This document shows positions 2,026-64,000 of a DNA stretch of 64,000 nucleotides, in pieces (position 1 is the first letter of the stretch; each line of letters opens with the position of its first letter). Source of the stretch: Candidatus Omnitrophota bacterium. GTDB taxonomy: Bacteria > Omnitrophota > Gorgyraeia > Velamenicoccales > JABMQK01. Both the position numbers and the translations under genes were made by a program. The stretch spans positions 966,032-1,030,031 of the forward strand of contig JAQTSV010000001.1 in the NCBI GenBank assembly GCA_028711115.1. Direction: 5' to 3'. The notes below the pieces were generated by a model. That model saw only the letters and a list, made by a program, of their open reading frames with translations. It did not search any database and was not told where the DNA came from.

Positions 2026-2553
2026 TCATTCCCCTTTAAATTTTATCAAAGAATGCAGAGGGTAATCTTTTAATTTTTCTTTACCTTTTAAATCCACCAA
2101 TTCTATCAAGAATAAAATGCCTACGATTTTTGCTTTTAACCTGTTCATCATTTCCACCACCGCTCCTACCGTGCCTCCGGTGGCCAGCAGGTCATCCACA
2201 ATCAAAACCCTCATGCCTTTTTTTATGGCATCGGTATGAACCTCTAAAGTGTCTGTGCCGTATTCCAAATCATAGCTAACCTGATGTGTTTTATAAGGCA
2301 GTTTGCCTTTTTTTCTTACGGGGACAAAACCCACGCCTAATTTATAAGCCAGCGCTCCGCCGAAGATAAATCCTCTTGCCTCCACTGCTGCCACCATATC
2401 AATTTTTTTACCTTTATAGATAGCTGCCATCTTGTCAATGGCCTGGCGGAAGGCTTTTTTATGCTTGATAAGCGTGGTAACGTCCCTGAATAAAATCCCT
2501 TTTTTGGGAAAATCCGGGATATTCCTGATATATCTGCTTAGCGGCTGAGCCAT
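2026..2553 (-). CDS. apt: Adenine phosphoribosyltransferase
   Basis: 175 aa. IRNIPDFPKKGILFRDVTTL N-terminus and VLIVDDLLATGGT PRPP-binding motif. GGGAGA SD. Confidence 0.9.
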   Translation of the reverse strand: MAQPLSRYIRNIPDFPKKGILFRDVTTLIKHKKAFRQAIDKMAAIYKGKKIDMVAAVEARGFIFGGALAYKLGVGFVPVRKKGKLPYKTHQVSYDLEYGTDTLEVHTDAIKKGMRVLIVDDLLATGGTVGAVVEMMNRLKAKIVGILFLIELVDLKGKEKLKDYPLHSLIKFKGE

Positions 2554-2568
2554 GACTTTCTCCCTGTC

Positions 2569-3387
2569 TTACAGCTTTTCCTTTTTTTGCTTTGATGCGA
2601 AAATACGCACTTTCTTAATCGCGCTTTCTTCGATCTGCCTTATCCTTTCACGGGAAACGCCTAATTTCTTAGCTACTTCCGAAAGCGTATGCGTTACACC
2701 GTCAGTAAGCCCAAAACGCAAATCCAGAACTTCTTTTTCTCTTGCATTGGGTATTTCCAAAAGAGATTCCACTCTTTCTTTATTAAAAAAAGAATCCAGT
2801 TCTTCTTTGGTACTGGTAGAACTCTGGTCTGCAACCAAATCCACTATGCTGCCTTCTCCGTCTTCGCTGATAGGTGCATCCAAAGAAGACGACGAAGTCA
2901 TCATGCGGCTATAAATCTTCTCTACTTTTTCTTCGGATATTTTCATGGTCCTGGCTAATTCCTTGATTGTAGGCAGCCTCTTATATTTCTGCGTAAGTTT
3001 CTCATTTGCCTTTCTCCATTTGGATACCAATTCGCTTACATATACAGGTAAACGCACAGTGCGGGATTGATCGAATATGGCGCGCGTTACGCTCTGTTTT
3101 ATCCACCAGGCAGCATAGGTAGAAAACCTGAATCCTCTGCGAGGATTGAATTTCTCCACAGCCTTCATAAGGCCGATATTCCCTTCCTCGATAAGATCCA
3201 AAAGCGGCATGCCTAAATGCATATACTTCTTGGCTATGCTGATGACTAAGCGTAAATTGGAGCGGATTAATCTGTCCTTGGCGTCTAAATCGCCTTTTCT
3301 GAACCGCTTGGCCAGATCGACTTCCTCTTCCGCGCTGAGAAGCGGCATCTTTCTTACATCTTTAATATATGCCCTGATTGGATCCAT
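2569..3387 (-). CDS. RNA polymerase sigma-70 family factor (short RpoD/RpoS-like, regions 2-4)
   Basis: 272 aa. Region 2 (LIRSNLRLVISIAKKY, DLIEEGNIGLMKAVEKF, FSTYAAWWIKQ) and region 4 HTH (TLSEVAKKLGVSRERIRQIE). Confidence 0.85.
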   Translation of the reverse strand: MDPIRAYIKDVRKMPLLSAEEEVDLAKRFRKGDLDAKDRLIRSNLRLVISIAKKYMHLGMPLLDLIEEGNIGLMKAVEKFNPRRGFRFSTYAAWWIKQSVTRAIFDQSRTVRLPVYVSELVSKWRKANEKLTQKYKRLPTIKELARTMKISEEKVEKIYSRMMTSSSSLDAPISEDGEGSIVDLVADQSSTSTKEELDSFFNKERVESLLEIPNAREKEVLDLRFGLTDGVTHTLSEVAKKLGVSRERIRQIEESAIKKVRIFASKQKKEKL

Positions 3388-3392
3388 TTACC

Positions 3393-6149
3393 CTACTTTT
3401 TGCCTTTTACTTTTTTAGATTTGCCTTCTTTAATCACAGCCTGAGCTGCTGCCAATCTGGCAATAGGAACTCTAAAGGGAGAACAGCTTACGTAATTCAT
3501 CCCTACTCTGTGGCAAAATTCCACTGATGCCGGTTCGCCGCCGTGTTCGCCGCAGATACCGACTTTTAATCCTTTGCGGGCTTTTCTGCCACGCGTAATT
3601 CCTATCTGCATCAATTCGCCCACACCCGCCTGATCAATTGTCTGAAACGGATCTACCGGAAGTATTCCTTTATTTAAATAATCCGGCAAAAATCCACCGA
3701 TATCGTCGCGCGAAAAACCGAATGTCATCTGCGTCAAATCATTGGTTCCGAACGAGAAGAATTCGGCGACTTCGGCGATTTTATCCGCAACCAAAGCCGC
3801 GCGGGGAATTTCAATCATCGTTCCTGTCAAATAGGAAATTTTCTTCAGGTTATATTTTGCCAAAACTTCCTTTTCAACTTTCTTGACTATGGCAAACTGG
3901 TTTTCCAGTTCTTTCACGTCGCAAACAACGGGAATCATTATCTCGGGAGAAACCTTTTTGCCTTCTTTGATTAATTCTGCCGCTGATTCAAGGATTGCGC
4001 GCACCTGCATCTCGGTTACTTCAGGATAAGTCACTCCCAACCTTACGCCGCGATGGCCCATCATAGGGTTACTTTCGTGCAGAAGCGCCGCTCTTTTATC
4101 CAAATCCTGACGGCTGATATTCAAACTCTTGGAAAGATTTTCCAATTGTTCTTCCTGTTTGGGCACAAATTCATGCAATGGCGGGTCAAGCAACCTGATT
4201 GTCACAGGCAAACTCTCCATCGCCTCTAATGTACCTTTGATATCGCTTTTAACAAAAGGAAACAATTCTTGCAAAGCAGCCTTGCGTTCTTTTTCACTAT
4301 TGGAAACAATCATTTTTCTTAATTTAAACAAAGGCTCTTCGGAATGTTCTCCGTAAAACATATGTTCTGTCCTGAATAATCCGATGCCTTCTGCGCCAAA
4401 TGAACGCGCGCGTCGAGCATCTTCCGGTGTATCTGCGTTGGTGCGGATATTTAACCTGCGCACAGAATCACAAAGCTTCAGAAAATCATTAAAAACTTTG
4501 TTTTCTGTACCGACATCCATCATAGCAAGTTTTCCTTCGTAAACATTGCCCTTGGTGCCATTTAAAGTAATCCAATCGCCTTCTTTTAATTTCTTTTCGC
4601 CGATGACTGCTGTCTTTGATTGGTAATCAATATGCAAAGCGCCGCAACCAACGATACAGCATTTTCCCCAGCCGCGCGCAACCAGTGCCGCGTGGGAAGT
4701 CATGCCGCCTCTGGCAGTCAAAATTGCCTCTGCTGCGCGCATTCCTTCTACGTCTTCCGGGCTGGTTTCTTCGCGGACTAAAATTACCTTCTTGCCTTTA
4801 TCTTTCCACTCCACAGCGTCGTCAGCGTTAAAAACTATCATTCCCGCTGCGCCTCCAGGGCCTGCGGGCAAACCTTTTGCCAAAGGCTTATGGTCTTTTT
4901 CTGCTTTGGGATCAATTATAGGATGCAAAAGCTCATCTATCTGAGCAGGTGTAACCCTGCTTATTGCCTCTTCTTTACTGATAAGTTTCTCTTTGTACAT
5001 ATCCACAGCCATTCTTACGGCTGCCGGGCCGTTACGTTTTCCTATGCGGCACTGCAGCATAAATAATCTTCCGCTTTCAATTGTAAATTCAATATCCTGC
5101 ATATCGTGATAATGTTCTTCGAGCCTGTTCTGGATATCGAAAAGTTCTTTGTAAATCTTAGGCATTGTCTCTTCCAGGGTTTTTAATTCTTTATTGTGTT
5201 CACTTCTGGAATATGAATTAATCGGAGCTGGCGTGCGGATGCCGGCAACAACGTCTTCGCCTTGCGCGTTGACAAGGTATTCGCCGTAGAATTCATTCTC
5301 GCCGTTTCCGGGGTTGCGCGTAAAAGCAACTCCTGTGGCAGAACTATTTCCCATATTTCCGAAAACCATGGTCTGCACGGTTACAGCCGTTCCCCACTCG
5401 TCGGGAATATTTTCAATGCGGCGGTAAGATATGGCGCGTTTACCGTTCCAGGACTGAAATACCGCGGCAACGCCACCCCAGAGCTGCTCGTATGCGTCGT
5501 CGGGAAAATCTTTTCTCAAAACTTCTTTTATCTTTTGTTTGAACCTGTCGCACAAATCTTTCAAATCCGCGGCGCTTAAATCAGTATCTAGCTTTACACC
5601 TTTTTTATTTTTGACTTCAGCCATTATGCGCTCTAATTGTTTCCTTATTCCCATCTCGTCGCTTTCCGGCTCGATTCCTGCGGCCTTTTCCATAACCACG
5701 TCGGAATACATCATAATCAACCGGCGGTACGCGTCATATACAAAGCGCTCGTTTTTGGTTTTATTGATCAAACCAGGGATTGTCTTTTGTGTCAGCCCCA
5801 CATTTAAAACTGTTTCCATCATTCCCGGCATTGACTTTCTTGCGCCGGAACGCACGGAAACCAATAACGGATCTTTTGTGTCGCCAAAATTCTTTCCCAT
5901 TATTTTTTCTACTTTTGCCAAAGCCTTTACCACTTCATCATTCAGGCTCTTGGGAAATTTCTTATTATTCTTATAGTAATAAGTACAGACTTCGGTAGTG
6001 ATTGTAAAACCCGGCGGTACAGGAAGCCTTAAATCTTTATTTCCGGCCATCTCTGCGAGGTTTGCGCCTTTACCTCCCAACAGGTTCTTCATTGAACCAT
6101 CGCCATCTGCCTTGCCAGCGCCAAAGAAGTAAACATTCTTGTTTGCCAT
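3393..6149 (-). CDS. ppdK: Pyruvate, phosphate dikinase
   Basis: 918 aa. MANKNVYFFG..GKGANLAEM N-terminus, phospho-His segment GGMTSHAALVARGWGK, C-terminal PEP-utilising TIM domain (GICGEHGG). Confidence 0.95.
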   Translation of the reverse strand: MANKNVYFFGAGKADGDGSMKNLLGGKGANLAEMAGNKDLRLPVPPGFTITTEVCTYYYKNNKKFPKSLNDEVVKALAKVEKIMGKNFGDTKDPLLVSVRSGARKSMPGMMETVLNVGLTQKTIPGLINKTKNERFVYDAYRRLIMMYSDVVMEKAAGIEPESDEMGIRKQLERIMAEVKNKKGVKLDTDLSAADLKDLCDRFKQKIKEVLRKDFPDDAYEQLWGGVAAVFQSWNGKRAISYRRIENIPDEWGTAVTVQTMVFGNMGNSSATGVAFTRNPGNGENEFYGEYLVNAQGEDVVAGIRTPAPINSYSRSEHNKELKTLEETMPKIYKELFDIQNRLEEHYHDMQDIEFTIESGRLFMLQCRIGKRNGPAAVRMAVDMYKEKLISKEEAISRVTPAQIDELLHPIIDPKAEKDHKPLAKGLPAGPGGAAGMIVFNADDAVEWKDKGKKVILVREETSPEDVEGMRAAEAILTARGGMTSHAALVARGWGKCCIVGCGALHIDYQSKTAVIGEKKLKEGDWITLNGTKGNVYEGKLAMMDVGTENKVFNDFLKLCDSVRRLNIRTNADTPEDARRARSFGAEGIGLFRTEHMFYGEHSEEPLFKLRKMIVSNSEKERKAALQELFPFVKSDIKGTLEAMESLPVTIRLLDPPLHEFVPKQEEQLENLSKSLNISRQDLDKRAALLHESNPMMGHRGVRLGVTYPEVTEMQVRAILESAAELIKEGKKVSPEIMIPVVCDVKELENQFAIVKKVEKEVLAKYNLKKISYLTGTMIEIPRAALVADKIAEVAEFFSFGTNDLTQMTFGFSRDDIGGFLPDYLNKGILPVDPFQTIDQAGVGELMQIGITRGRKARKGLKVGICGEHGGEPASVEFCHRVGMNYVSCSPFRVPIARLAAAQAVIKEGKSKKVKGKK

Positions 6150-57552: not shown

Positions 57553-58038
57553 TTAAGTCGCCACCCGCCTTTCTGCGAGCCTCCTGAAACTTCCGAAAAA
57601 CGATTCCAATACCGGGCTCCAGATAATCTGATTTGCGCCGTCGTGGTATGTAGAGCCGAGCACGGCCTTGCCGTTTACATTGGTTAACTTTACACCGGTT
57701 TCAAATTTAAGATCGTCTTTTTGGCCTGATGATTCCTGGCACCACCTTACCTCGCCCTGCATAGTAATCGGCTCTTTTGCGTCGGGCAGATACACGTATA
57801 AATTGAGAAAATCCCCTTTTTTCAATTCCCTGGTGGAGATAAAACATAAACCTTCTACGCTCACGTTCTTGGTCATCGCGGAAAGTTTCTCTGAAAGAGT
57901 TTTATCGTGTTTGTCTTTATCTAAAATCTGAAATTTAAGCCTAGCCATTACCTGATAACTAACATTAAAATAAACCTTTGCCTCAACCGGGTAACGCTCG
58001 TGCCTTCTCTGCTCATTCTCCTTGCTGGGATTATTCAT
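57553..58038 (-). CDS. PilZ-domain protein (putative c-di-GMP receptor)
   Basis: 161 aa. RRHERYPV (RxxxR) and NVSVEGLCF (D/NxSxxG) motifs. Confidence 0.75.
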   Translation of the reverse strand: MNNPSKENEQRRHERYPVEAKVYFNVSYQVMARLKFQILDKDKHDKTLSEKLSAMTKNVSVEGLCFISTRELKKGDFLNLYVYLPDAKEPITMQGEVRWCQESSGQKDDLKFETGVKLTNVNGKAVLGSTYHDGANQIIWSPVLESFFGSFRRLAERRVAT

Positions 58039-60020: not shown

Positions 60021-60452
60021 CTAGAGTGGCTCAGCTTCGATTGAAGCCGGAATAGCAGTTAATTCTCTCTTAGAAAATGAACCGCCTGAACTGCTGTATA
60101 CATAAACCCCTCCATTTGGTCCGGTATAAGTATTGCCTCTTTTTGACCAATCAGAAGTTATTCCTCCCTGCGACAGCACCATATCAAAACAAGCGTTGCC
60201 AGCCGCGCAATTTCCATTGGCAGCGCTATCTAAGGCTGCCGGATAAGCGCCTGCGGAGACAACACACTTATTAGCATAATAATTAGAAATACCGGTCCTT
60301 ATTGCCGCGACTACGCTATTTTCTGTAGCTTCCTTGGCCGGCGCCTGCAAATCAAGATATCTCGGCAGAGCCACGGCTGCTAAAATGCCGAGGATAACAA
60401 TAACCATAACTAATTCAATTAACGTAAAGCCTCTTTTGTTTTCTTTAATCAT
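60021..60452 (-). CDS. Type IV pilin / T2SS pseudopilin-like protein with prepilin N-terminal methylation motif
   Basis: 143 aa. [25 protein letters not shown]. Confidence 0.85.
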
Positions 60453-60673: not shown

Positions 60674-61384
60674 TTATGCTATTCCGATAGTTGTTTCTAT
60701 CGATGAGGTAATCCTTGAGAATGCAAAAAGGCGATGTGCTTCTGAAGCAGGTTTATTCTTTATAGGTGGAAGCAAAATCTTATACTTTTGCTTTAAGGCA
60801 TCAAATACCATAACACCTATCTTAAATTTCTTGAATTGTCCAATATTTTTTAGTATCAAATTTTCTTTTTCCACAGGAAAAACAATAATTAGGCGATCTG
60901 CAAAAGCTCTATACTGCAGCGACTGAAAAAGAGCTCTTTTCCAATTGCTAATTTTAAGCTCAAAAGCCCATAATTCCATTGATTTTATACGCCATTTTGG
61001 CGACAATATAAAATAGCCGTTAGGTAATTCTAGTATAGCCTTTTTATGTCTTAGGTTAGTTAATATGCTTTTAATTGTTTTTAAAGAAAGACCACTATTC
61101 TCTATGATATATTTTTTGCTTCGAGGAATTAAATGTCTTAGGAGGGAAAAAACTTTTATATAACTTTCAGTTGAGCCATCAAATACGTGGTTAATCTTTG
61201 CAAAGTATTTTTTCTCTAATCCATGGCCAGATATTGTTATGAAATCAGCTATTCCTTGACGACAACTTATCTCTCGAGCGATTAACTTAAATTCCGGAAA
61301 TTCGTTGAAGCATTTCTTACGAAGGCAATCTTCAAAAGTAGCAGCTAAAAAAGCTTCAGATATTTTTCTATTTTCAGTAACCAT
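60674..61384 (-). CDS. Hypothetical protein, PD-(D/E)xK nuclease-like motifs with an inserted wHTH-like segment (cassette gene 3)
   Basis: 236 aa from ATG 61384, which overlaps the gene 2 stop (TGATG). GIADFITIS ... WAFELKISNWKRALFQSLQY gives a D / ExK / Q spacing pattern. Between them, GLSLKTIKSILTNLRHKKAILELPNGYFIL looks like a helix-turn-helix plus wing. Confidence 0.55.
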   Translation of the reverse strand: MVTENRKISEAFLAATFEDCLRKKCFNEFPEFKLIAREISCRQGIADFITISGHGLEKKYFAKINHVFDGSTESYIKVFSLLRHLIPRSKKYIIENSGLSLKTIKSILTNLRHKKAILELPNGYFILSPKWRIKSMELWAFELKISNWKRALFQSLQYRAFADRLIIVFPVEKENLILKNIGQFKKFKIGVMVFDALKQKYKILLPPIKNKPASEAHRLFAFSRITSSIETTIGIA

Positions 61385-62571
61385 CAAATACTAGTATCCG
61401 TTCTAAAATTCTGAATAGCTCTCTGCCATTGTTCCAAGTGTGCTGAGTTTGAATATGGTTCGAACGCTACTGCACCCTGCTCTAATCTAGCATAAATTGC
61501 TCTTGCTCTTGCAATCATCTCAAGCATTGAATTCAGTCTTTGACCAATCGTCCCTGTAGCTACTTGCCCTATAGCTTGCTGAACTGCATTCCAATGATGC
61601 AAGTAACTTATATCTTTTGTCCAAGGTGCATTTGCCGGATCAGTACGAAGTATACCATCGTAAGATGTTGCGGTCAATACTTCATCTATAAGCCCACTTC
61701 TGTAAATTGAATCTAATTCTGGGATTACTAAAATAGAATTTAGCAGGGGTATAGAAGTATATCTATCTCTAGCAGGCCTACCTCCTGTGGATGGTTGAAA
61801 TCTCGAGAGGGAAAACTGCCTTAGAGAATTGAACCAACCACATGCTGTTGCTGCTGCTCCAACCACATGAAGTAATATACCCATTATATCTGTATAACCA
61901 TAAATAACCTCAAAAGAATTTAGTTCGGCAAGTGCATAAGTCATATATAATAAATTTTGTAACGTACTAGAATCCATTTGAGTTGTATAGTGATCATTTG
62001 ATCGTCTCAAGATGATATAAAATCCGGCTGCCTGGAAAACCGAAATTATATCAAGGAATTCTCCCATCCTATCTGCGGAACGAAGAGCTGTTTCAGAAAA
62101 TACTAGTGATATCAATAAAGGAGGCGCTCCTCTTAAATTTGCTTGATAAGCAATTGACTCTTGAGCCATTGATAAAGCAATTTGACTCCAAGGATCCTGA
62201 AAATCATCAAAGAGAACTGTAGGTGAAACAAGATAAGACAAGGGTAATTGCATCTGATAATCTATACTTTCTCTAATATATCGACCAATATCAGCAGGCG
62301 CAATAAAATCACCTCTTGTGAGACCAGCATGATAATATGGGTAACTTGATAAATTTCCTTCTTTCACGGGAGAAACCGTGGTGACATAAAACTGAGTGTC
62401 AAAAATAATAGGAATATTAGAAAATTCCTGACGTAAACTTGCAACATAACTCTGAAGATTTACGGGATCCTCATCTCGCGGGCTCATTATAACACCTTGA
62501 AGATGTCCTGCCTGTATGCCTCTAGTTATCTTATCTGATTTTCCATATCCATGCTGTACAAAAAAAGCCAT
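61384..62571 (-). CDS. Hypothetical protein, unknown function, (beta/alpha)8-like alternation plus helical C-terminal region (cassette gene 2)
   Basis: 395 aa. ATG 62571 behind a GGGAGGGG SD. Eight short hydrophobic strand-like segments alternate with amphipathic helices. No P-loop or other motif recognised. Confidence 0.6.
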   Translation of the reverse strand: MAFFVQHGYGKSDKITRGIQAGHLQGVIMSPRDEDPVNLQSYVASLRQEFSNIPIIFDTQFYVTTVSPVKEGNLSSYPYYHAGLTRGDFIAPADIGRYIRESIDYQMQLPLSYLVSPTVLFDDFQDPWSQIALSMAQESIAYQANLRGAPPLLISLVFSETALRSADRMGEFLDIISVFQAAGFYIILRRSNDHYTTQMDSSTLQNLLYMTYALAELNSFEVIYGYTDIMGILLHVVGAAATACGWFNSLRQFSLSRFQPSTGGRPARDRYTSIPLLNSILVIPELDSIYRSGLIDEVLTATSYDGILRTDPANAPWTKDISYLHHWNAVQQAIGQVATGTIGQRLNSMLEMIARARAIYARLEQGAVAFEPYSNSAHLEQWQRAIQNFRTDTSI

Positions 62572-62594
62572 TTTGTCCCCTCCCTATCTCTTTA

Positions 62595-63506
62595 TTATAT
62601 CCTTACTGCAGCAAGGGCTTCATCTAGTTGCTTACACGTGCTATAACGAAGATGAGGCTTTTTGGCTAAAAGTCGCATAATTATATTATCAAGTTCTATT
62701 GGTAAATCACTTCTAAGTGATATTGGCGAAGGTGGCTTACTATCCAAAATTTTAGCAATAATATCTGTAGGGTTATTCACACCTGTCATAAAAGGATGAT
62801 GACCAGTAGCTGCTTCATATAAAACAACACCTAACGAAAAAATATCCGAACGGAAATCCATTTGACGTTTACGTGCTAAATCTATTTGATCCGGCGATAG
62901 ATACATCAGTGTACCTGGGACAATTCCAGTTTTTGAAAGCGATTCGTCAAGAAGGTCTAAAACAAGCCCCAGATCTAATAGTATAAAATCACCAGACTGC
63001 TTGCTTCGCATAATGTTGCCTGGCTTTATGTCCCTATGTATCTTTGCGCACATCCAAAGGACTCTTATAGCTTCTGTAATATTTCTCCCTAAACGAATTA
63101 TCTCTTTTATGGATAATTTTTGCTTTTTTATAATAATATTCCTGAGATCAACTCCTTCAATAAATTGTTCTGTAAAATAAAGCAACGTTTGCCCTTTATA
63201 GTCTAAAGACGTTAAGGGTATGGGACCTAATTTGACTAAATAAGGAGACTGACATTTTTCTATCACCTTAACTTCTCTTCTGGCTCTGGCCGTTACTTCA
63301 TCAATCAAAATCCTTATTTGTCCTTCTTCATCTTCAACGGACTGCGGTATATTAACTAACATGAATTTGATTGCGAACAATTCATCATTAATCTTAATAG
63401 GAAAAACTATCTTCTGTCCACCTTTCGCTGGTTTACCCATAACCGCTACAGGCGTATCAACTAAGATTTTGTTAATGTCTTCTTTTGTAAGATTAGGAAG
63501 GGCCAT
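62595..63506 (-). CDS. Stand-alone Hanks-type Ser/Thr protein kinase (cassette gene 1)
   Basis: 303 aa. KGGQKIVF loop, FAIKF (catalytic Lys), REVKVIEK (helix C Glu), IHRDIKPGNIM, LLDLGL (DFG-like), GTLMYLSPD (APE-like), DIFSLGVVLYE. No extra domains. Confidence 0.85.
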   Translation of the reverse strand: MALPNLTKEDINKILVDTPVAVMGKPAKGGQKIVFPIKINDELFAIKFMLVNIPQSVEDEEGQIRILIDEVTARARREVKVIEKCQSPYLVKLGPIPLTSLDYKGQTLLYFTEQFIEGVDLRNIIIKKQKLSIKEIIRLGRNITEAIRVLWMCAKIHRDIKPGNIMRSKQSGDFILLDLGLVLDLLDESLSKTGIVPGTLMYLSPDQIDLARKRQMDFRSDIFSLGVVLYEAATGHHPFMTGVNNPTDIIAKILDSKPPSPISLRSDLPIELDNIIMRLLAKKPHLRYSTCKQLDEALAAVRI

Positions 63507-63534: not shown

Positions 63535-63563
63535 ATTATAGCCCATTTATATTCAATAGACAA
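63535..63563 (-). promoter_or_regulatory. Putative promoter of the kinase cassette (TTGTCT-17-TATAAT)
   Basis: Minus strand reads gaaTTGTCTattgaatataaatgggcTATAATataaat. -35 = 63563..63558, -10 = 63540..63535, 29 nt upstream of the kinase ATG. Confidence 0.55.
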
Positions 63564-63601: not shown

Positions 63602-63645
63602 CGGGGACAACCTTGATTTTATTCTCAAGGTTGTCCCCGTTTTTC
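63602..63645. terminator. 15-bp perfect-stem hairpin between the upstream membrane-protein gene and the cassette promoter
   Basis: CGGGGACAACCTTGA-ttttattc-TCAAGGTTGTCCCCG. The T5 run follows on the plus strand only. On the gene (minus) strand the tail is gaaattctc. Confidence 0.5.
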
Positions 63646-63652
63646 TTCCGAT

Positions 63653-64000
63653 TTATATCTTAACTATAAACTTGGTCAGATATATCGCCAATAAAACAAC
63701 TAAGGCGTTGCCAACCAGAAAACGCACATATGGCGGCCTGTGGGATTTCTGCCATCTGTCCCAATGCAGCGCTATCTTTATTACAATCCATGCCGCAATA
63801 AGAGACCATTTGCCCCAGACAATAATGGCCGGGTAAACATACAATTCCAGACCACCCAGTATGGTAGGAAGAAAATAGTCGTTTAATTTAGCGTGTCTTT
63901 CCTGGCTGAGGAATAAATTCGAGAAAAGTTCCATTCCTTTCTTTTTATATATTTTACTGAGATTATACCCCTTGGCATCTGCTTTCCCCTGCAGAATAGC
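63653..64000 (-). CDS. Hypothetical small membrane protein, 5' end uncertain (frame stays open to the right window edge)
   Basis: The track gives 93 aa from ATG 63934 (2-3 TM segments). I translated 63935..64000 in the same frame and found no stop (AILQGKADAKGYNLSKIYKKKG-M...). The true start may therefore lie outside the window. Confidence 0.45.
   Translation of the reverse strand, partial: AILQGKADAKGYNLSKIYKKKGMELFSNLFLSQERHAKLNDYFLPTILGGLELYVYPAIIVWGKWSLIAAWIVIKIALHWDRWQKSHRPPYVRFLVGNALVVLLAIYLTKFIVKI

Follow-up and report, generated by a model that had tools for sequence, protein, structure and literature searches.

The stretch of DNA considered here, called the window below, comprises 64,000 nucleotides (nt) of a Candidatus Omnitrophota bacterium (assembly GCA_028711115.1, contig JAQTSV010000001.1, positions 966,032 to 1,030,031 of the forward strand), and close to its end it carries a cassette of three genes (Table 1). 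The first encodes a protein kinase, the second an orphan (beta/alpha)8-barrel protein, which is the subject of this report, and the third a putative nuclease. The barrel protein represents a new family whose gene travels with those of the two partners, and the whole would be a conflict cassette that relies on kinase and nuclease and has that family at its centre. Probably it is a new anti-phage system.

Table 1. Cassette genes and associated features, in coordinates of the window
Feature	Position	Strand	Basis
Cassette gene 1, 303-amino-acid (aa) Hanks-type Ser/Thr protein kinase	62595..63506	minus	Pfam Pkinase, PADLOC PD-T4-6
Cassette gene 2, 395-aa orphan (beta/alpha)8-barrel protein with C-terminal helical domain	61384..62571	minus	open reading frame (ORF), ATG start
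Cassette gene 3, 236/237-aa predicted PD-(D/E)xK-type nuclease with inserted winged helix	60674..61387	minus	motifs, AlphaFold2 model
Kinase-barrel intergenic spacer, 23 nt, carries GGGAGGGG Shine-Dalgarno	62572..62594	minus	read from sequence
Candidate cassette promoter, sigma-70-like TTGTCT-17-TATAAT, upstream of kinase gene	63535..63563	minus	consensus scan
GC-rich hairpin, 15 bp, between cassette and upstream 201-aa gene	63602..63639		terminator-like scan

The initial annotation had picked out gene 2 as the largest of the cassette and as having a strong Shine-Dalgarno sequence, and both points hold. Its product of 395 aa compares with 303 and 237 aa for the partners, and GGGAGGGG, at + coordinates 62577-62584, lies 5 nt 5' of the ATG, the minus strand 5' of the start codon reading AGATAGGGAGGGGACAAA-ATG. 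The start of the nuclease gene overlaps the stop of the barrel gene, the NCBI call for the former being 236 aa from an ATG. The promoter candidate matches 10 of the 12 consensus positions and is the best in a scan that is in itself no evidence of function, while the hairpin is probably a terminator insulating the cassette. GC content is 32-39% in the cassette, as against 40-50% in its flanks.

No known family claims the barrel protein. As a single sequence it matched no family in Pfam, NCBIfam, PADLOC or PHROGs and no sequence in the Protein Data Bank (PDB), in keeping with its earlier description as a protein of no recognisable motif. A Pfam scan of 57 members of the family gave no match for any of them, even at E <= 10; a 57-member profile met no match among PDB sequences, tRNA-guanine transglycosylases (TGT) included; and neither a P-loop nor any other nucleotide-binding motif turned up in any family scan. 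An indexed homologue search yielded 385 homologues, of which those listed are, bar a few shorter entries, ~390-400 aa long, and every named one among them carries the label 'hypothetical protein'. An identical copy of the window protein is encoded in a Candidatus Omnitrophica metagenome-assembled genome (MAG). An exhaustive profile search retrieved 1,310 cluster representatives (50% identity) at E <= 1e-3 and 351 at E <= 1e-30, with no fusion protein among the best 150, the shorter entries being partial sequences. Since the homologues are many and of uniform length, the protein is real and under selection.

The family is nevertheless sparse, with 49 barrel loci among ~186,000 species genomes (one genome per species), yet it reaches Planctomycetota, Acidobacteriota, Chloroflexota, Bacillota, Actinomycetota, Alphaproteobacteria, Latescibacterota, Cloacimonadota and one Bathyarchaeia MAG. 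A distribution so rare and at the same time so broad is the pattern that horizontal transfer produces. A tblastn search of 50,697 phage genomes, lytic and temperate, gave no match, and in IMG/VR the barrel is on only 2 contigs. Searches of the literature found no description of the barrel family or of the triad, which is not proof of absence.

The AlphaFold2 model of the barrel protein, built with a 57-sequence alignment of homologues, has no low-confidence segment (predicted local distance difference test score, pLDDT, 95.1; predicted template modelling score, pTM, 0.93). In it DSSP assigns eight strands (residues 2-6, 26-29, 55-57, 114-121, 152-159, 183-189, 221-225 and 241-244), each followed by a helix, and beyond the barrel a beta-hairpin (270-281) and then a helical region (306-393). 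The initial annotation had called a (beta/alpha)8 barrel by eye and did so correctly strand for strand, its eight named hydrophobic runs being the eight DSSP strands (FFVQH, GVIM, IIF, LV..LF, LLISLVFS, GFYIILR, EVIYG and ATAC); the '~130-aa helical' C-terminal region that it described was a close estimate of an extension of ~90-125 aa in which a hairpin precedes the helices. The predicted fold is therefore the barrel that had been proposed, and no confident match to a housekeeping enzyme family came with it.

Compared by Foldseek with the PDB, the model has human and mouse QTRT1 and archaeal ArcTGT as its top matches (7nq4, 7owz, 7ovo, 1iq8). These TGT matches extend over ~400 columns, i.e. 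barrel plus C-terminal domain, at E = 6e-5 to 5e-4, query TM-score (TMq) 0.48-0.55 and ~10% identity. Against predicted viral structures (BFVD), the named top matches are a phage 'tRNA guanine transglycosylase' and queuine tRNA-ribosyltransferase proteins, of DpdA type. The nearest known structures are thus tRNA/DNA-guanine transglycosylases, and the similarity is weak. TGT-like DpdA had been offered earlier merely as an example of a barrel in such contexts, and in each of the two libraries TGT came first among the structural neighbours; the reluctance to claim a relationship was right, given the weakness of the similarity and the absence of the defining TGT features.

Generic triosephosphate isomerase (TIM) barrels (mandelate racemase, dehydroquinase, GH5 etc.) align over ~250 columns only, with TMq 0.3-0.39. 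It is highly improbable that the protein is an ordinary TIM-barrel enzyme of carbohydrate or metabolite chemistry, glycoside-hydrolase-like or phosphoenolpyruvate-utilising, that is fortuitously linked to a kinase. GH5 cellulases, dehydroquinase, KDO8P synthase and pyruvate kinase do figure among the weaker Foldseek matches, and the pocket described below is rich in Asp/Glu and aromatic residues, as such enzymes would have it; yet those matches are to the barrel only whereas the TGT alignment is full-length, Pfam gives no signal for any such family, and linkage to kinase and nuclease is near absolute across phyla, in one instance to the point of fusion.

What the barrel family has in common with TGT and DpdA (PF01702; human QTRT1, 7nq4; ArcTGT, 1iq8; phage DpdA) is a (beta/alpha)8 barrel plus C-terminal subdomain in ~390 aa. 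A possible further parallel is that in each an early strand has an acidic residue at its C-terminal end and an aromatic one comes after it, within DPQFY in the barrel family, DSGGFQ in TGT and DSGAFS in DpdA. There is no similarity at the level of sequence or profile. TGT possess a structural zinc site of three Cys and one His in the C-terminal subdomain, as well as a pair of catalytic Asp residues, one after an early strand (DSGGF) and the other, the nucleophile, after the last strand (D102 and D280 in the Z. mobilis enzyme). The CxCxxC...H zinc site is absent from the barrel family, and the nucleophile Asp after strand 8 has no conserved counterpart in it. The barrel has either lost, or never had, the TGT zinc site and sequence signature. 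Alignment of the barrel family with DpdA and TGT by HHalign gave no signal (E = 0.45-0.55) in a test without discriminating power: with home-made input alignments (11-36 sequences for DpdA, 5 for TGT), the DpdA-TGT positive control reached E = 0.015 and the barrel-kinase and TGT-kinase negatives E = 0.03. Surroundings differ too, as the clustering of neighbours at the 57 fetched barrel loci showed no linkage to preQ0-pathway or DpdB/DpdC genes, FolE, QueC or ParB being neighbours at fetched phage dpdA loci, and the barrel is partnered instead with a protein kinase.

Conservation was analysed over 247 aligned members, among them relatives of only 23-30% identity. A single charged residue is invariant (100% of members), namely D58, which lies where strand 3 ends on its C-terminal side, and D228, after strand 7, is conserved in 92%. 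Other conserved positions at or after strand ends are Q6, K11/K14, S30/E34, Q60/Y62, D126/W128, E160, Y185, Y226 beside D228, and W246; loops and helices contribute Y77/Y79, Q106, N218 and R251, and the hairpin R270/Y271/S273. Strand 8 is followed by conserved G245-W246 and not by a conserved Asp. The window protein has one Cys, which is not conserved, and the column richest in Cys has it in 32% of members. No His of the barrel reaches 75% conservation, the sole conserved one being H326 in the C-terminal domain. Placed on the model, this layout is that of a candidate TIM-barrel active or ligand site, whose mixture of acidic, aromatic and basic residues would suit a ligand that is a nucleobase, sugar or phosphate. 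D58-P-Q-F-Y62 resembles DSGGFQ of TGT and DSGAFS of DpdA, a likeness of local motif that is a lead only.

A metal-dependent barrel of the TatD or amidohydrolase type was considered and is ruled out by the lack of a conserved His in the barrel. For defence barrels of this TatD-like or amidohydrolase/deaminase type, such as the TatD-like QatD with its HxH feature (PMC13434339), HxH and further His/Asp metal ligands are expected on the strands, and the barrel of this family has no conserved His to supply them.

Family hidden Markov models (HMMs) were run over all 57 fetched loci and neighbouring genes were clustered all against all. At each locus examined, the gene next upstream of the barrel is that of the kinase. 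A nuclease gene accompanies them at 54 of the 57, or at 54 of the 55 that are informative, two of the exceptions being truncated contigs. The linkage to kinase and nuclease holds across phyla, even where barrels are only 23-30% identical. Absence of the nuclease from loci L051 and L052 was entertained and rejected, as a more diverse HMM detects it in them at 1e-28 to 1e-43. The sole genuine exception, the Sulfidibacter corallicola M133 chromosome (L045, 4997-7194), has the kinase-barrel pair, within 6 kb of which no nuclease gene could be detected, and is either a natural two-gene variant or a case of the nuclease being encoded elsewhere. The clustering showed no recurrent fourth gene; other clusters that might have passed for a fourth conserved gene were antisense shadow ORFs inside the triad genes. 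Some copies are apparently decayed: the kinase is split in L024, the barrel of L041 is in pieces of 81 and 294 aa, and L056 has fragments only.

The order of the genes varies around the constant kinase-barrel pair. In 15 of 43 complete triads, that of the window included, kinase, barrel and nuclease genes follow one another in one direction; in 26 the nuclease gene is convergent with the kinase-barrel pair; and in two, on a Bacillus mycoides plasmid and a Natribaculum haloarchaeal plasmid, it precedes the kinase gene. One of the 26 takes the pairing to its limit. On the Priestia megaterium plasmid p6_CACC119 (L058:3885-5918, WP_322552809.1), kinase (residues 42-271) and barrel (333-665) are fused in one protein of 677 aa, annotated only as 'serine/threonine-protein kinase', and the nuclease gene that comes next is convergent and overlapping. 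At other loci a 4-nt overlap is the commonest kinase-barrel junction, or the two genes are a few nt apart.

At convergent loci the 3' ends of barrel and nuclease genes overlap in 30 of 34 cases, by a median of 31 nt and up to 86 (the loci listed for this junction are L012, L015, L018-L020, L022-L024, L027-L038, L041, L043, L044, L046, L049, L050, L053, L054 and L058), so that there is no room for a terminator. This suggests antisense or transcriptional-interference coupling of the kinase-barrel operon and the nuclease gene. Convergent layouts with 3' overlap are also common for pairs of restriction and modification genes, and they lend something to the main rival proposal, itself unlikely, that the cassette performs a base exchange of restriction-modification type, in which a DpdA-like barrel, as DNA transglycosylase or glycosylase, would mark host DNA, the third protein would restrict unmarked DNA and the kinase would balance the two. 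That TGT and DpdA are the nearest structural neighbours, and that the invariant Asp closing strand 3 has aromatics after it in the manner of their DSGGF and DSGAF, is in the same direction. The proposal has to reckon, however, with a barrel that lacks the zinc site, the Asp after strand 8 and any PF01702 signal, with loci that have neither linked preQ0-synthesis genes nor a DpdB-like ATPase nor, in 57 instances, any recurring fourth gene, and with a tight coupling, even fusion, of barrel to kinase for which the logic of restriction and modification has no need.

The three proteins diverge in concert. Pairwise divergences correlate (Spearman) at 0.72 for barrel and kinase, 0.59 for barrel and nuclease, and 0.68 for the third pair, from which it follows that they travel together. 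Median pairwise identity is 0.37 for the barrel, 0.40 for the kinase and 0.26 for the nuclease; the barrel evolves as slowly as the kinase, and the nuclease faster. So slow a rate speaks for an enzyme, or for a sensor whose ligand is conserved, and against a fast-evolving protein sensor. The idea put forward in the initial annotation, that the barrel is the likely sensor or enzymatic core of the cassette, fits this kinase-level conservation, the conserved polar residues after strands and the fusion to the kinase in one lineage.

The kinase is a minimal kinase domain (Pfam Pkinase, 1.7e-29), whose best PADLOC models are those of PD-T4-6, down to 2.8e-46 for PDLC04053, and which also matches PglW weakly (7.5e-13). 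Its catalytic motifs are all intact (K47, E78, HRDIKPGN, DLG and SP[DE]Q), and K47, E78, HRDIKPxN and DxG are invariant. In one Planctomycetaceae locus (L017:4090-5994) the cassette kinase ORF is of 634 aa, with an uncharacterised N-terminal extension of ~340 aa that may be an over-extended call; a further kinase gene, not related to it, is encoded on the other strand of this locus (2334-4034).

The third protein matched no nuclease family in Pfam. The PD-(D/E)xK superfamily has an alpha-beta-beta-beta-alpha-beta core and the catalytic motif E...D...ExK(...Q). Alignments of 34 and of 39 divergent members show little or no variation at E39, G45, D48, E143, K145 and Q155, and the AlphaFold2 model (pLDDT 92) has the topology alpha-beta-beta-[winged helix-turn-helix (wHTH) 59-128]-beta-alpha-beta, the insert at ~59-128, between the D and ExK motifs, being a winged helix of MarR/ArsR type. 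The best structural match of the core is 3dnx, described by Laganeckas et al. as a PD-(D/E)XK structure (PMC3045609). Motif residues, topology and structural match together make the product of gene 3 a predicted PD-(D/E)xK nuclease whose catalytic motif is intact and whose core is interrupted by a DNA-binding domain. The nuclease of L054 is without the winged-helix insert.

The cassette is an obligate, horizontally mobile three-gene unit. It occurs on three plasmids (Bacillus, Priestia and haloarchaeal), and in a provirus (L078:6335-12060; IMG/VR UViG_2687453591_000001) the triad has an integrase on one side and, on the other, an ImmA-like metalloprotease, cI-like repressors and an Ant anti-repressor. 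Defence cargo borne by prophages classically occupies this slot, a lysogeny or 'moron' position. Among archaea, complete triads are found in the Bathyarchaeia MAG (L040) and on the Natribaculum breve plasmid (L060; CP095393.1, 3432-6188), whose record is unannotated in the triad region. The 147 nearest neighbours include type I restriction-modification subunits, MADS mad2/mad5, BrxC, PglZ, three integrases and a TrwC relaxase, along with many metabolic genes, and some loci adjoin HigB/HigA-like and MazE/PIN pairs or IS66/TnsD genes. Neighbours belonging to restriction-modification, bacteriophage exclusion (BREX), MADS or toxin-antitoxin (TA) systems are found in a minority of loci.

In the source contig the cassette is flanked on one side by valS, nadC and the 201-aa gene, and on the other by a pilin-like gene, uvrB, coaX and groES/EL. 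The 201-aa gene is of unassigned function and does not recur with the cassette at other loci; a 93-aa ORF listed at 63653-63934 is the 3' part of it (L076:8314-8919), running off the end of the window. Between the cassette and uvrB, an apparently lone gene on the minus strand (60021-60452) encodes a 143-aa protein with the type IV pilin N-terminal methylation motif (PF07963, 2.7e-9). Further on, the minus-strand gene (57553-58038; L076:14534-15019) for a 161-aa protein with a PilZ domain in Pfam has uvrB on one side and the gene for type III pantothenate kinase on the other.

Such surroundings have some bearing on what kind of module this is. Housekeeping neighbours at many loci, the position of the window cassette beside uvrB, the MarR/ArsR-type wHTH of the third protein and the precedent of CapK/CapS, which shows that kinase-repressor pairs can act as regulators (PMC13373217), would all be at home in a mobile module for stress response, DNA repair or regulation, without a part in defence, whose kinase phosphorylates a wHTH transcription factor or repair nuclease and whose barrel is metabolic or processes damage. 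We regard this as rather improbable, for there is no conserved downstream operon to regulate, the catalytic residues of the nuclease are invariant although a pure regulator has no need of them, and the patchy pan-phylum spread, carriage on plasmids and prophage, low GC and decayed copies give the cassette the look of accessory conflict genes.

A three-part TA or addiction module is a further alternative. In it the nuclease would be the toxin and the kinase-barrel pair its neutralising partner, stabilising a mobile element with no specific sensing enzyme involved. The frequent separate, convergent transcription of the nuclease gene with 3' overlap, the carriage on plasmids and the adjoining TA pairs agree with it, as does the gating of a VapC toxin by CapK/CapS-like proteins (PMC13373217). 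The chance of it is slim, since a simple antitoxin needs no 395-aa barrel with an enzyme-like pocket and kinase-level conservation; in any event it largely overlaps with the defence explanation preferred here, many TA systems being defence systems.

Several known systems offer parallels. PD-T4-6 and Stk2 are single-gene kinase defences that act by abortive infection. The cassette kinase matches PD-T4-6 at 2.8e-46 and is catalytically intact, and the Priestia fusion mimics the layout of a kinase with a C-terminal domain. The cassette kinase differs in being a bare domain that does not stand alone but is always with a barrel gene and, in 54 of 55 informative loci, with the nuclease. PglW of type 2 BREX/Pgl and kinase-DndF combine a NERD nuclease, Ser/Thr kinase, wHTH and C-terminal sensor (PMC12839542), which is the same domain vocabulary of nuclease with restriction-endonuclease fold, Hanks kinase, winged helices and sensing module as in the cassette. 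There it is embodied in one giant protein within multi-gene BREX or Dnd systems and has a fast-evolving sensor, in contrast to three small stand-alone genes whose putative sensor is a slowly evolving TIM barrel. The TA-like anti-phage module CapK-CapS-VapC, in which a toxic nuclease is under the control of a kinase together with a partner protein (PMC13373217), has matching logic without homology: CapK is a kinase of the anti-sigma-factor type, CapS a STAS protein and the toxin a PIN/VapC RNase, which rules them out as homologues. As for the barrel itself, DpdA is the precedent for enzymes of TGT type at work in DNA-level defence (PMC10164549, PMC12839542).

On balance we favour, at about even chances, the explanation that this is a new kinase- and nuclease-based defence cassette in which the barrel is the conserved ligand-binding or catalytic partner of the kinase. 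Kinase and barrel would act as one functional unit, as they are usually translationally coupled, co-diverging and, in Priestia, fused. A pocket at the C-terminal face of the barrel, made up of D58 with Y62 at +4, D228, E160, D126, several Tyr/Trp and K/R residues, would bind or process a nucleobase, nucleotide or nucleic-acid cue of phage or plasmid invasion. The cue would switch the kinase on, and the kinase would then phosphorylate the nuclease or lift its inhibition, after which the wHTH-guided nuclease might cut DNA, with the invader stopped or the infected cell killed. Confidence is high for the architecture, moderate for the defence role, to which genomic context points, and low for the order of events; the nature of the ligand, likewise, is part of what is proposed.

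A more specific version has a small chance of being right. In it the barrel would be a zinc-less descendant of the transglycosylase fold that flips out and reads, or else excises or exchanges, a nucleobase in the nucleic acid of the invader, wired to a Hanks kinase that licenses the wHTH-guided nuclease; its target might for example be a base, hypermodified or of 7-deazaguanine type, by which an invader escapes ordinary restriction.

Several considerations weigh against the favoured explanation in its general or specific form. It is from context that a defence role is deduced; ordinary housekeeping genes flank many loci, that of the window among them, and apparent enrichment in defence islands is modest. 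PADLOC-DB v2.0.0 at E <= 1 returned zero families for barrel or nuclease. The resemblance to TGT comes from Foldseek only, with a best E of 6e-5 and ~10% identity, and D58 as the equivalent of the TGT catalytic-pocket Asp is a candidate equivalence, unproven, taken from the motif. Which protein phosphorylates which also belongs to the proposal.

As a defence system, if it is one, the cassette would be a compact three-gene module, recognised by none of the libraries searched, that extends over at least ten phyla and is carried by plasmids and prophages. It would also tie a eukaryotic-like Ser/Thr kinase obligately to a conserved partner of TIM-barrel fold, and so be tractable for study of how kinase-based immunity is activated; the activator of PD-T4-6-type kinase systems is still an open question. 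The kinase-barrel fusion and the four alternative gene orders offer ready-made constructs and predictions. Should the transglycosylase version be true, it would mean a new class of immune sensor, in which a protein of TGT fold recognises nucleic acid at the level of the base and protein phosphorylation passes the signal on. In its own right the barrel defines a new protein family that is well modelled and has a clear candidate for its active site (D58, D228 and an aromatic cage), and through it the transglycosylase fold may gain a form without zinc.

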